Source of the DNA: a virus
Virus record (IMG/VR): IMGVR_UViG_3300035181_001055
Span: 62,754 to 126,753 of that record
Direction: 5' to 3' (one strand)
Length of the DNA: 64,000 nucleotides
The notes beneath the pieces were generated by a model. The model was not told the DNA's origin, searched no databases, and worked only from the letters and a program-made list of their open reading frames with translations. A program made the translations under genes and the position numbers. Shown here in pieces: positions 30,480 through 33,429 of this stretch (position 1 is the first letter of the stretch; each line of letters opens with the position of its first letter).

Positions 30480-30487
30480 CATAAATA
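30480..30487 (+). promoter_or_regulatory. Late-promoter variant CATAAATA
   Basis: One mismatch to consensus, 28 nt upstream of 30516. Confidence 0.65.
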
Positions 30488-30515
30488 ATCATATTCATAA
30501 CAAAAAAGAAAAGAT

Positions 30516-31622
30516 ATGCTGAAATTTAAGCAGTTTCTGCTTTTTGAGGGCGGTAATGTAGTTATTGACGACCAAGGAGCGGATAGAATTGATTTAAGCA
30601 AAATAAACAGAACAGAAATTGTCAAAACTTTGACTGATGGTCTGAAAGCGATAAATCGCGCATTTGAAAAGCAGAATGGGTTGCCTCTTTGGAGCGACGA
30701 AATTTTCAAATCAAATCAATTTCTGAGTGGCAGTGCGTTTCATTTCTTTGATCTGAAGAATATTAAAGACGATGAATTTGTAAAAGTTAAGCCTTCTGTC
30801 GGGGATATTGACACTCAAGTTGATGGAACGCTCGACACTCTTATTGTCAATTTCTTGAATTCAAGCAAAGGTAAGAGATTTGGGCCATTAACTCTTATTG
30901 GGTTCAAAACTAGTCATGGTCAGCGTATAACATTATGGCGTTTGGATAAATTTGATATGAATGTTCAGATTGACTTGGAGTTAGTTGAATATAGCGCTGA
31001 TGGTAAGCCGACTCCTTGGTCACAATTCAGTCATTCGAGCTCTTGGAAAGACCTTAAACAAGGTTTGAAGGGTGTGGCTCACAAGTATCTTATGCAAGCA
31101 ATAAATGCTCGCAGTTTACATGATTTGGTTATAAAAGCCAGGACACAGAGAAGCAAAGATAAGATTACGAAGAGCTCTCAGATGACGTTTTCGGTTACGA
31201 ATGGGCTTCGTCAGCGTCTCGAGCCAGTTCTCGATTCTAAAGGCAATCATGTGACAGTTAATGGGTTGCCTGCTTATCGTGAGCTTAGCACATCTGAAAG
31301 TCAAGGCAACACGGACTTGAATTATATTTTCAAGACTTATTTCGGCGAAGACCCTAATGAAAAAGACATTGAAAAAATGAGCAGTTTCATTGGTCTTATT
31401 GGATTGATTGAGAAATATTTCAGCAAAGAAGAACAAAAAATGGTCGTCGATGGGTTCATGCATAAATTGTGGGGTCCAGGCGCTCAAGGATTGTATAGAG
31501 GAGATAAAGAGCGAGACTATAATGAGAAAATGGCCATGGCAAATTATCTTTTGAATTCTCTTGGTGGGTCTATCGATACTTACCTCAAAATGATTGAAAC
31601 TTACTACAAAACATACGAATGA
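30516..31622 (+). CDS. Putative Pol-beta-superfamily nucleotidyltransferase
   Basis: LSGS...VGDIDTQV and QIDL acidic triad; GLKG motif. Confidence 0.6.
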   Translation: MLKFKQFLLFEGGNVVIDDQGADRIDLSKINRTEIVKTLTDGLKAINRAFEKQNGLPLWSDEIFKSNQFLSGSAFHFFDLKNIKDDEFVKVKPSVGDIDTQVDGTLDTLIVNFLNSSKGKRFGPLTLIGFKTSHGQRITLWRLDKFDMNVQIDLELVEYSADGKPTPWSQFSHSSSWKDLKQGLKGVAHKYLMQAINARSLHDLVIKARTQRSKDKITKSSQMTFSVTNGLRQRLEPVLDSKGNHVTVNGLPAYRELSTSESQGNTDLNYIFKTYFGEDPNEKDIEKMSSFIGLIGLIEKYFSKEEQKMVVDGFMHKLWGPGAQGLYRGDKERDYNEKMAMANYLLNSLGGSIDTYLKMIETYYKTYE

Positions 31623-32515
31623 TAATTAGTTTCAAAGAATTCATTGCAGAGAGTGTTGCTACCACTACTCGTCAAGGTATCACTCATCTTCAGGACATGA
31701 AGCCTGAAGAATTTGTTTCGTGGATCAAAAGTGTAAAAGCTGCAGGCGGAGTTCTATCTAACTATAAAACGGTTATGAAGATAGATGGCCTAGGAGCTCG
31801 CTTTGGGCGTGATTCAAGCGGAAAGATATTCTTTGAGGGTAGCAGAACTGGTCCAATTTTTGACAGCGGAGCTTTTAGCGCACATGCCATAGCTAAAGGT
31901 GCCTCGGATGAAATTGTGCTTAGGGCTAAGCATTATGACGATATGCTCGAACTTTTCAAAACTGCTGATTTCATGAAAGCGGTGCCTAATGATACGAAGG
32001 TTGTTTGCGAAATCTTTTACAATCCAATGGCAAAAGAAGAAGAGGATGGCATTACCTTCGTCACCGTCAAGTATGACAAGACTAAATTGGGTAGTTTAAT
32101 GAGTATCATGCCCTATACTGTTCTTCAGGCTAGTACTGGTTTAGAACACCCTGATAAGAAAAAAATTCTCGATGATTTATACAAGAAAAGCAACGAGAAA
32201 ATTAAAATCATTGATCCTAATCTGAAGATGGGGTCAATTGATATTTCTGGTATAATAAACACCGTTGCTACTATTGAAGATGGCGCTCTTGAAATACTAA
32301 AAAGTAGAAAAGCTATTGATAGAGATGCAAAGCAAAATATTTTAGATATCATTCAAAAAGCAAAAAATGATTTAGCTTCTTATTTGCTTGCACATCCAGG
32401 CATTGAAGATAAATTCAAGTTAGGTCAAAATATTGAAGGCATTGTTATACACGTAAATGATAAGCCGTTCAAAATAACGACCGACGAATTCAAAGCTAGT
32501 AAGAGGAAATCATGA
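31619..32515 (+). CDS. Putative ligase-like (covalent nucleotidyltransferase) protein
   Basis: KIDG (motif I), CEIF (III), EGIVI (IV) and FKI (V). Confidence 0.55.
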   Translation: MIISFKEFIAESVATTTRQGITHLQDMKPEEFVSWIKSVKAAGGVLSNYKTVMKIDGLGARFGRDSSGKIFFEGSRTGPIFDSGAFSAHAIAKGASDEIVLRAKHYDDMLELFKTADFMKAVPNDTKVVCEIFYNPMAKEEEDGITFVTVKYDKTKLGSLMSIMPYTVLQASTGLEHPDKKKILDDLYKKSNEKIKIIDPNLKMGSIDISGIINTVATIEDGALEILKSRKAIDRDAKQNILDIIQKAKNDLASYLLAHPGIEDKFKLGQNIEGIVIHVNDKPFKITTDEFKASKRKS

Positions 32516-33429
32516 CAGACGAGAAAACGGAATATCCTAAGCCTGGAAAAAAGAAAGTTCAAATCTTCATGGGACGGATGCAACCCATTCATTTGGGCCA
32601 TAAGAAAATTATTGATAGTATGAGAAATCCTGTCATTGTCTTGGTCAAAGGCGCCAAGTCAAGTGAGGATAAGACGAAAAATCCATTTAGTGTTGATTAT
32701 CAAATTAAACTTATTAAAAAGATTGAACCTCATGCAGAAATCATGGTTGCTTCAACTGGTTATCTTCCTTCTATCATAAACCAACTCAGAGAGAAGGGCG
32801 AGGAGCCAGATGCGGTTTATGCTGGAGCTGACCGAATTTCTGGATATAAGAAGCAGATTGATGATGCGAACTCCAAATTGCCGAATGAATATAAATATCA
32901 TGTGGAGTTCAAAGAAACTGAGCGTGTAACAAGCGCAACCACCGTTCGCAATGCTATTCGTTCGAATAACATTGACGAGTTTAAGAGAAACATGCCTAAG
33001 GAACTATGGGGAGAATTTGACACCATGAAAAAGCTAATCGGAGAAAAAATCAATATCGGAATCAAGTCATTTGAAGAATGGCTCGCTGAAGAAGAAGAAG
33101 CCGAAAAAGATGATGAAGAAAATGTGAATAAGAGCGACCAAGTTGCGAAAAAAGATTCGCCGATCGGTAACGGTAAAGTCGCAAGACGTAAAGATGATGA
33201 GGATGACGACGAAGAAGATGATGATGATGATGATGATGATGAGCTGAAAGAAGATGAAGACAAAGAAAAAGACAAAGATGATGAGGACGATGACGAAGAA
33301 GATGATGACAAAGAACTAGAAGAAGAAGATGATGATGATGATGATGATGATGATGATGATGATGATGAGGATGACGACGAAGAAGATGATGAGAAAAAAG
33401 ACAAGAGAAAGCGCATAAACGATGATTGA
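32512..33429 (+). CDS. Cytidylyltransferase-like (HxGH) nucleotidyltransferase with acidic tail
   Basis: FMGRMQPIHLGH, KNPF, AGADR and SATTVR motifs. Confidence 0.8.
   Translation: MTDEKTEYPKPGKKKVQIFMGRMQPIHLGHKKIIDSMRNPVIVLVKGAKSSEDKTKNPFSVDYQIKLIKKIEPHAEIMVASTGYLPSIINQLREKGEEPDAVYAGADRISGYKKQIDDANSKLPNEYKYHVEFKETERVTSATTVRNAIRSNNIDEFKRNMPKELWGEFDTMKKLIGEKINIGIKSFEEWLAEEEEAEKDDEENVNKSDQVAKKDSPIGNGKVARRKDDEDDDEEDDDDDDDDELKEDEDKEKDKDDEDDDEEDDDKELEEEDDDDDDDDDDDDDEDDDEEDDEKKDKRKRINDD
33193..33393 (+). repeat. GAT/GAC/GAA low-complexity tract encoding poly-Asp/Glu
   Basis: (GAT)13 at 33328-33366, plus three related gatgatgagga(t/c)ga..gaagaagatgat blocks. Confidence 0.95.

Follow-up and report, generated by a model that had tools for sequence, protein, structure and literature searches.

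Most of what is known of the head-loading tag of bacteriophage T4 comes from small inhibitor proteins and from the ADP-ribosyltransferase Alt; with the latter there is a precedent for enzyme cargo as well as for a protein being cut at its two ends. The T4 capsid-targeting sequence (CTS), MKTYQEFIAE, loads IPI, IPII and IPIII, which are internal proteins, as well as any protein fused to it, into the prohead (PMC8442874); its positions 4 and 7 govern targeting, positions 8 and 10 govern processing, and gp21 cuts after L/I-x-E (PMC9026906). The stretch of DNA analyzed here, a window of 64,000 nucleotides (nt), makes up the second half of an IMG/VR virus record of 126.7 kb (IMGVR_UViG_3300035181_001055), which belongs to a T4-like phage and is about 75% complete; all positions given below are those of the window, unless another phage or locus is named. 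It contains three genes, further referred to as ORF1 (30516..31622, + strand, 368 amino acids, aa), ORF2 (31619..32515, + strand, 298 aa) and ORF3 (32512..33429, + strand, 305 aa), with ATGA overlaps at both junctions, ORF1/ORF2 and ORF2/ORF3. Their predicted products are a Pol-beta-superfamily nucleotidyltransferase, a stand-alone adenylylation domain of the ligase/capping superfamily and a protein composed of a HIGH-signature enzyme domain, an internal tag-like motif and an acidic tail. The trio is a probable new variant of the T4 internal-protein/Alt-type head cargo. Like IPI, IPII, IPIII and Alt, it combines a tag of about ten residues (aromatic at positions 4 and 7, isoleucine or leucine at 8, glutamate at 10) with a gp21-type protease and a late-promoter box. 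Unlike them, it consists of three predicted nucleotidyl-transfer enzymes, which have no sequence relation to those proteins; the genes are operon-linked, in relatives they are fused with cut-site linkers, and the tag may be C-terminal (ORF3). By analogy with T4, we consider it quite probable that the trio is head cargo in this phage.

The ORF1 prepeptide, MLKFKQFLLFE (30516..30548, + strand), ends with a predicted gp21 site, L-F-E, followed by GGN, while that of ORF2, MIISFKEFIAE (31619..31651, + strand), is near-identical to the T4 IPIII core (EFIAE), with a cut predicted after E11. In ORF3 the corresponding sequence, SFEEWLAE (residues 186-193; 33067..33090, + strand), stands between the enzyme domain and the tail, the predicted cut falling after L-A-E and before the next E. 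ORF2 fits the T4 tag rule exactly and ORF1 fits it with one inserted residue (FKQFLLFE); the F-x-x-F/W-L/I-x-E motif, which the original prediction had ascribed to all three proteins, is real and family-conserved, but it is one residue longer in ORF1 and internal in ORF3. A 10-12-aa prepeptide ending in [LIVM]-x-E right before the invariant GGN is present in 96 of 120 ORF1 relatives, another 8 starting with M-GGN, and the tag motif is present in 82 of 90 anchored ORF2 relatives. Among the relatives of ORF3, 26 carry the tag N-terminally (e.g., MKTFKDFINEA), 22 have it on the C-terminal side of the domain, and 27 have no match to the regular expression; in Xanthomonas phage BUDD the tail that follows the ORF3 domain is a separate ORF of 76 aa with SFENFLAE. 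Since its four key positions are kept, since it ends at the domain border and is disordered in both structural models, and since it can be moved between the ends of a domain, the shared motif behaves as a portable address and cut site and not as a part of the enzymes. In the whole 126.7-kb record the N-terminal tag pattern occurs in 4 of 216 ORFs of at least 90 aa (about one being expected), namely in ORF1 and ORF2, in a protein of 1327 aa that has a weak PARP-like stretch, and in an AAA+-like ATPase of 494 aa. Cleavage of the tags is expected from a gp21-type prohead protease (Peptidase_S77) encoded at 6263..6916 (+ strand; Pfam PF03420, 7.1e-39, 133.8 bits against a cut-off of 27). The mature trio enzymes, with pI of 7.9-9.1, are basic, as are the T4 internal proteins.

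Published data on virions of other phages provide evidence on the homologues of ORF1 and of the HIGH transferase. Gene 1-56 of Campylobacter phage IBB_35 (39251-40417 in that phage, 44.4 kDa), a homologue of ORF1 (30% identity, E 2e-31), is among 38 virion proteins identified by mass spectrometry, with 17% coverage (PMC3322345, supplement); the copy from CP21, a phage closely related to IBB_35, begins with MKLSELILILE ahead of GGN. The "cytidylyltransferase" gp140 was the sole enzyme detected in CsCl-purified virions of the cyanophage S-SZBM1 (PMC9146016). Its N-terminus is MRFRQFIIE, then A, and it is 70.6% identical to P-TIM40 gp183, which matches ORF3 with E of 1.5e-9 pairwise and 2e-6 against the phage collection. 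The head-cargo reading would explain the occurrence of this "cytidylyltransferase" and of an unknown 44-kDa protein in the published virion proteomes. Two proteomes with homologues, the gp21-type protease and the match to the T4 tag and gp21 site thus speak for the packaged, co-injected module envisaged in the original prediction. That prediction also placed a late-promoter variant ahead of the trio, and a T4-type late-promoter-like box (NATAAATA), CATAAATA, does lie at 30480..30487 (+ strand), 29 nt upstream of the ORF1 ATG. By itself CATAAATA is not above chance in the window (4 seen, 3.2 expected), but NATAAATA is enriched in relatives: 11 of 20 distinct related loci have it upstream of their ORF1 homologue at a distance of up to 150 nt, vs. 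3.2% of background windows. Exact TATAAATA precedes the major capsid gene (at 7655), the scaffold gene and the genes of the 1327-aa and 494-aa tagged proteins, and this, together with NATAAATA upstream in 11 of 20 loci, makes late expression of the trio a reasonable expectation. One more TATAAATA, at 32890 within ORF3, was taken as a chance occurrence.

The ORF2 profile retrieved 32 IMG/VR loci, in which ORF1 is directly upstream of ORF2 wherever the sequence allows, with an inserted gene in a few, and ORF3 follows downstream within approximately 2.5 kb in about 17. ORF2-ORF3 fusions are common (P0117, P0023, P0029 and others), while a profile search of 1.84 billion representatives revealed about 45 ORF1-ORF2 fusions and two single chains comprising ORF1, ORF2 and ORF3 (P0329 and P0355); the ORF1-ORF2(-ORF3) fusions are genuine ORFs on phage-like contigs. 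Constant ORF1-ORF2 adjacency, ORF3 downstream and the two- and three-domain fusions bear out the co-conservation on which the original prediction depended, and its statement that similar ORFs recur as "hypothetical" genes in T4-like phages holds as well. That the trio is one functional unit we regard as nearly certain. As to the fusions, [IL]-x-E-A is retained in 21 of 21 ORF1/ORF2 linkers (ESITEA, LDEA, LLEA, etc.), and this preserved site suggests, at the level of sequence, that the fused chains are polyproteins cut by the prohead protease.

The nearest described counterparts of ORF1 in overall layout are family X polymerases (PolX), such as the minimal Pol X of African swine fever virus (ASFV), the partner of the ASFV ligase in viral base-excision repair. 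ORF1 shares with them the palm and the following subdomain, the GS and three-carboxylate site and a ligase partner. Its AlphaFold model, built from 38 relatives, has a predicted local distance difference test score (pLDDT) of 91.7, with residues 1-12 below 50. The hG[GS], DxD and third-carboxylate signature of the Pol-beta-like superfamily is present; G72 S73, D97 D99 and D153 E155 are invariant in the 38 relatives, and the carboxylates are located on model strands 97-103 and 148-157, as the fold requires, D97, D99 and D153 being the predicted catalytic residues. The top Foldseek matches of the model are Pol lambda/Pol beta (E 1.4e-3). Structural re-alignment gave Pol mu (Z 8.3, 187 aa, root-mean-square deviation, rmsd, 4.7), Pol lambda (Z 7.6, 203 aa) and ASFV Pol X (Z 7.2, 162 of its 178 residues aligned), and for the palm alone the terminal uridylyltransferase (TUTase) TUT7 (Z 7.8), Trf4 (7.5) and OAS2 (7.4), other matches being CdnG (Z 7.0) and cGLR (6.8). 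The leading matches in three structure searches all belong to the Pol-beta superfamily, with palm rmsd of 2.7-3.0 Å over about 100 residues; the range observed with PolX (Z 7.2-8.3, rmsd 3.7-4.8 Å, 162-203 residues) may reflect a common arrangement. These structural matches, together with the invariant residues placed as the fold requires, lead us to regard ORF1, as modeled, as a Pol-beta-type transferase of PolX-like layout with an extra C-terminal helical domain (residues 268-365), membership in family X not being demonstrable. Unlike PolX, it has no PolX sequence-model match, is tied with TUTases and has the extra helical domain, and no 8-kDa/HhH domain was identified in it. In sequence comparison, ORF1 matched nothing in Pfam at E ≤ 0.1, and at E ≤ 0.05 NCBIfam yielded nothing relevant (two weak rows of unrelated families were far under their cut-offs); the ORF1 profile retrieved only chance rows and no polymerase from PDB sequences, and its PHROG match is phrog_19290. 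A CCA-adding enzyme was also considered as a model for ORF1 and rejected, a tRNA-processing enzyme appearing only at Z 5.3.

As for ORF2, its AlphaFold model (pLDDT 90.8, residues 1-10 below 50) matches NgrRnl (Z 10.3, 191 aa, rmsd 3.7), REL1 (9.1), T4 Rnl1 (9.0) and T4 Rnl2 (8.8). When the search did not depend on Foldseek, ligases, capping enzymes or related folds filled the first 45 rows, with RNA ligases in the lead, after which the scores drop below 5. Motif I of the KxDG form (K54-I-D56-G57) is present, and motif III (E131, strand 126-134) and motif IV (E273-G274, strand 274-279) follow in the canonical order; K54, D56, G57, E131, E273, G274 and K285 are invariant in 36 relatives. A helical insert of about 100 residues is located between motifs IIIa and IV, and the only PHROG match is phrog_12709 (unknown function, E 1.7e-4). 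With the ligases of the Rnl5 (NgrRnl, DraRnl) and Rnl2 (T4 Rnl2, REL1) types ORF2 shares the fold (Z 8.8-10.3 over 180-196 residues) and motifs I, III and IV; in contrast to them, it has neither the N-terminal OB-like module of Rnl5 nor the C-terminal domain of Rnl2, and the identity is approximately 10-15%. Judging from the model, ORF2 is a stand-alone adenylylation domain of the ATP-dependent ligase/capping superfamily, with RNA ligases being the closest.

The enzyme domain of ORF3 (residues 1-185; 32512..33066, + strand) is recognized by Pfam PF01467 with 30.9 bits (cut-off 21) and contains the motifs GRMQPIHLGH and TSATTVR, in which G21, R22, Q24, P25, G29 and H30, as well as S141, A142, V145 and R146, are invariant, while H27 and T143 are kept in at least 90% of relatives. 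The matching PHROGs are phrog_3041/395, "cytidyltransferase." Comparison of the ORF3 profile with PDB retrieved NadM and archaeal nicotinamide mononucleotide (NMN) adenylyltransferases (NMNAT; 2qjt, 9.5e-7; 1ej2, 1.6e-5; 1f9a, 2.8e-5), the matches being confined to the N-terminal 56 or so residues, i.e., the HIGH region. By these sequence criteria ORF3 is a HIGH nucleotidyltransferase, nearest to archaeal/NadM NMNAT. It shares with these enzymes GRxQPxHxGH and the NP(F/L) element that follows, with TSATxVR replacing ISxTxxR, and differs from them in carrying a head tag and an acidic tail and in having relatives fused to ligase domains. The tail (33091..33429, + strand; 112 aa, pI 4.05) contains 73 Asp/Glu residues, and only a short segment of it, ..KKDxP(I/L)G..RRK, is conserved. 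Its poly-Asp/Glu is encoded by a GAT/GAA trinucleotide array of about 66 units (33193-33392), which we consider a recent expansion because close relatives have tails of only 40-60 residues. The original prediction had read the three proteins as a Pol-beta-type nucleotidyltransferase, a ligase-type protein (KIDG, EGIV, K) and an HxGH cytidylyl/adenylyltransferase. All three assignments stand: the first on the AlphaFold model, Foldseek and structural matches and invariant catalytic residues, the second on the model matches and motifs invariant in 36 relatives, and the third on PF01467 above its cut-off and both conserved motifs. CCA addition, which had been among the activities offered for ORF1, is less well supported (Z 5.3) than a PolX/TUTase-like activity.

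With belief somewhat outweighing doubt, we propose that the trio is protease-processed head cargo, ejected with the DNA, which extends and seals broken nucleic-acid ends. In this case each tag would dock its protein to the prohead scaffolding core, and the gp21-type protease would cut after I/L-x-E, in ORF1 before GGN, in ORF2 after E11 and in ORF3 between the domain and the tail. The mature, mildly basic enzymes would then stay in the DNA-filled head until they are ejected along with the genome, in the manner of T4 IPI-III and Alt. In the host, ORF1 (PolX/TUTase-like) would add nucleotides to a 3'-OH end or fill a gap, ORF2 (Rnl2/Rnl5-like) would seal the nick via Lys54-AMP, and ORF3 (NMNAT-like) would use ATP to adenylylate a 5'-phosphoryl acceptor, which may be NMN (to produce NAD+) or another phosphorylated ligand serving the ligase. 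Broken phage DNA or RNA would thus be met, as soon as infection starts, by a fill-and-seal kit made in advance. A 3'-end adder combined with a nick sealer reproduces the logic by which PolX and a ligase act in base-excision repair and in end joining, and also that of LigD and, in RNA editing, of TUTase with REL1. It is for this reason that we favor break repair or joining at entry; the repeated fusion of ORF3 to the ligase argues that the two share a pathway. Taken alone, nucleic-acid break repair as the job of the trio is a tentative assignment, on which our doubts slightly prevail.

A number of observations weigh against this proposal. In ORF2, motif V is family-wide K-I-T(-T) and not K-x-K, K285 alone being retained; the protein is a single domain, which ends 13 residues past motif V and has no OB or C-terminal domain, and at the level of sequence it has no match in Pfam or NCBIfam, while its profile retrieved only chance rows from PDB. 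In ORF1, the GS-to-DxD spacing is 23 residues, while 9-13 is usual in the Pol-beta-like superfamily, and the Z scores are middling (7-8.3), with PolX, TUTase and OAS-like proteins in a near tie. ORF3 scores under the NMNAT cut-offs (NF002243, 29.7 vs. 127 bits; TIGR01527, 27.3 vs. 181 bits), the matches covering residues 18-77 only; since it fails these family cut-offs, NAD+ restoration is only a lead. The cluster of this phage encodes no end-healing kinase, phosphodiesterase or phosphoesterase, and the 494-aa tagged P-loop protein, considered as a candidate for the absent polynucleotide kinase, was rejected as AAA+-like. We know of no precedent for a HIGH transferase in a fill-and-seal pathway. 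The ORF1 homologues of the phages BUDD (Xanthomonas), YB07 (Stenotrophomonas) and pv27 (Vibrio) are untagged, starting with M-GGN and having stop codons just upstream; given that these cultured phages have homologues without the tag, the enzymes evidently can work unpackaged. Finally, it is by analogy that we infer cleavage, packaging and ejection in the phage studied, and the substrates of all three proteins are likewise putative.

Some of the same evidence would suit a packaged tRNA/RNA repair kit acting against anticodon nucleases or RNA-cutting defenses, with ORF1 rebuilding 3' ends (in a CCA-like way or by tailing), ORF2 ligating RNA and ORF3 providing a cofactor. The best structural matches of ORF2 are indeed RNA ligases (NgrRnl, REL1, T4 Rnl1, Rnl2), and TUTases are among the best palm matches of ORF1; TUTase and REL1 form the fill-and-seal pair of the trypanosome editosome, T4 repairs tRNA by means of Pnkp and Rnl1, and in pv27 an annotated tRNA nucleotidyltransferase and a hydrolase are located a few kb upstream. 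However, the ends left by anticodon nucleases (2',3'-cyclic phosphate and 5'-OH) need a kinase/phosphatase, which the cluster lacks, the CCA-type enzyme is low for ORF1 (Z 5.3), and the longest ORF1 alignments are with PolX, so we find such a kit rather unlikely. We also think it unlikely that ORF3 is a true NMNAT supplying NAD+ at entry, whether for a PARP/Alt-like enzyme or against NAD+-depleting defenses, with ORF1 and ORF2 acting separately. NadM/archaeal NMNATs are the nearest solved relatives of the ORF3 profile and its best NCBIfam rows, the tagged 1327-aa protein with the PARP-like stretch is encoded in the same window, and phage pathways of NAD+ reconstitution are known (Osterman et al., 2024, as cited in PMC12801897). 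Nevertheless, ORF3 is far below the NMNAT cut-offs and matches in the HIGH region only, no NampT/NadV partner was noticed adjoining it, and its repeated fusion to the ligase domain, in P0329 and P0355 also to ORF1, points to a shared pathway.

The proteins might also be ordinary cytoplasmic late proteins, e.g., maturing or repairing replicated 7-deazaguanine-modified DNA before packaging, in which case the motif would not be head-targeting. The homologues without prepeptide in BUDD, YB07 and pv27 agree with this, as does the position of the cluster, which is flanked by replication (gp41-type helicase) and 7-deazaguanine genes and, at its opposite end, by baseplate genes. We nonetheless hold it to be quite improbable, as the motif equals the T4 CTS at all four key positions, always ends at a domain boundary and switches ends of the ORF3 domain, and homologues were found in purified virions. 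Very doubtful, in our opinion, is a module which makes or mimics a nucleotide second messenger against host immune signaling, ORF1 being a cGAS/OAS/CD-NTase-like synthase: OAS2 (Z 7.4), CdnG (7.0) and cGLR (6.8) are among its structural matches, but these rows are no better than those of PolX/TUTase and the long alignments have rmsd of 7-8 Å, while an obligate linkage or fusion with a ligase domain is foreign to known CD-NTase systems. That the three proteins lack catalytic activity and serve the head as structural or scaffolding components, which their probable location in the head and the deviant motif V of ORF2 would allow, is hardly credible in view of the metal carboxylates, the motif I lysine, motifs III and IV, HxGH and the SxTxxR-like motif, all invariant in 33-38 diverse relatives.

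If head cargo that extends and seals broken ends is the correct reading, and the enzymes leave the head together with the DNA, the activities of a polymerase, a ligase and an adenylyltransferase would appear in the host before any transcription, forming a new early layer of counter-defense or genome repair. The same tag is carried by a conserved three-enzyme set in hundreds of uncultured T4-like and jumbo phages; of this set, Campylobacter phages have only ORF1, and cyanophages have a variant form. We can go further only with considerable doubt and suppose that T4-like and related large phages widely package and inject a fill-and-seal repair machine composed of a PolX-like polymerase, an RNA-ligase-type sealer and an adenylyltransferase, some of them as a protease-cut polyprotein, which would mend nicks, gaps or defense-inflicted breaks prior to the expression of any phage gene. 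Within such a machine, the adenylyltransferase, i.e., the HIGH transferase, would prime or fuel ligation, and it might adenylylate 5'-phosphate ends directly; the latter, if true, would be a two-enzyme ligation chemistry not described so far. Anyway, the fusions of ligase domains with HIGH transferases point to a biochemical coupling without known precedent, and with the ORF2 family, perhaps together with DUF6267, the stand-alone ligase domains would gain a new branch. Literature searches on the tag in combination with ligase/nucleotidyltransferase, on DUF6267 and on "cytitidyltransferase" found no paper describing the trio module.

Cyanophages possess a DUF6267 protein (KWDG ... EGFVAIK ... 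LKLVDR) and a tagged HIGH transferase in the same place after the gp41 helicase. The transferase, known as "cytitidyltransferase" (T4-GC0190; P-TIM40_183, S-SZBM1_140), resembles ORF3 in its HIGH fold, its N-terminal tag (MRFLDFIKE, then A, in P-TIM40_183), its post-gp41 site and its neighbor with ligase motifs; in contrast to ORF3, to which it is approximately 26% identical, it has an extra C-terminal domain, and its neighbor is DUF6267 instead of the ORF2 family. The two cyanophage loci examined showed no homologue of ORF1. In Vibrio phage pv27, a HIGH transferase is joined in one chain to a different protein, with KTDG, and this fusion is four genes away from the homologue of ORF1. Comparison of the ORF2 profile by hhalign was not significant either with the cyanophage DUF6267 (E 0.0086, probability 4.7%) or with the pv27 KTDG-HIGH fusion (E 0.51), and for this reason we claim only a motif-level resemblance of both proteins to ORF2. 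A search for DUF6267 in the genome under study gave no match, but the control genomes were equally without one, so its absence is not shown. The ligase-like motifs of DUF6267 (KWDG, EGFV, LKLV(N/D)R) were observed at three loci (L027, 6010-7959, P0320; L040, 4714-5904; L042, 3218-4411), DUF6267 being fused to the ORF2 domain on a 260-kb phage contig and adjoining the tagged HIGH transferase in cyanophages; by its sequence, it may be an unrecognized ligase family.

Two other loci deserve mention. In one of them, L019, the homologues of ORF2 and of the HIGH transferase are separated by an inserted calcineurin-like phosphoesterase (6896-7399; PF12850, 8.5e-11), a possible 3'-end-healing partner. 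In the other, a single ORF of 2078 aa (P0371; L044, 6001-12237) on a 178-kb phage-like contig contains ORF1- and ORF2-like domains along with a second NTP_transf_2, Amidoligase_2 and DUF6934; this giant multi-enzyme chain may be cut by a prohead protease.

Both remaining tagged proteins of the record are encoded in the window. The 1327-aa protein (46542..50525, + strand; phrog_18612) has a tag-like N-terminus, MRFEDFIKHLQE, is preceded by TATAAATA at 46405 and has a weak match to the PARP catalytic domain (E 5.3e-5, below the cut-off); its sequence makes it a likely candidate for an Alt-like packaged ADP-ribosyltransferase and further head cargo. The 494-aa AAA+-like ATPase (52415..53899, + strand; phrog_1250) starts with MFSFKKWLTE, then A, follows TATAAATA at 52369 and is likely another head cargo protein; in phage BUDD its homologue adjoins the ORF1 homologue on the opposite strand.

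As to the genomic surroundings, Megablast of the trio region against 50,697 phage records gave zero matches, and the count of sigma-70 promoters and intrinsic terminators in 30200-33700 was not above that in shuffled sequence. The portal, gp21-type protease, scaffold and capsid genes are located at 4-9 kb of the window. Directly upstream of the trio are genes of the 7-deazaguanine pathway (QueF-like, QueE-like) and of the gp41-type helicase. This 7-deazaguanine (queuosine-type) gene run occupies 23900-29099 and includes an ORF with a QueC-like SGGMDS motif (24573-25310), an ORF with a glutamine-amidotransferase-like start MCGIF (25317-25931), a nitrile reductase resembling QueF (25928-26851; Pfam QueF_N and QueF) and a radical SAM protein resembling QueE (28206-29099; phrog_2076); the guanines of the phage DNA are probably modified, possibly to dPreQ1. 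Directly downstream of the trio are a gp26-type baseplate hub and, right behind it, a 966-aa protein (34421-37321) with a strong VgrG3-like C-terminal domain (PF21277, 2.6e-65), which is probably a tail-associated cell-wall-degrading protein. One more protein, of 373 aa (57156-58277), encoded among the genes of the tail-fiber region, contains a Spherulin4 domain (PF12138, 4.7e-36).

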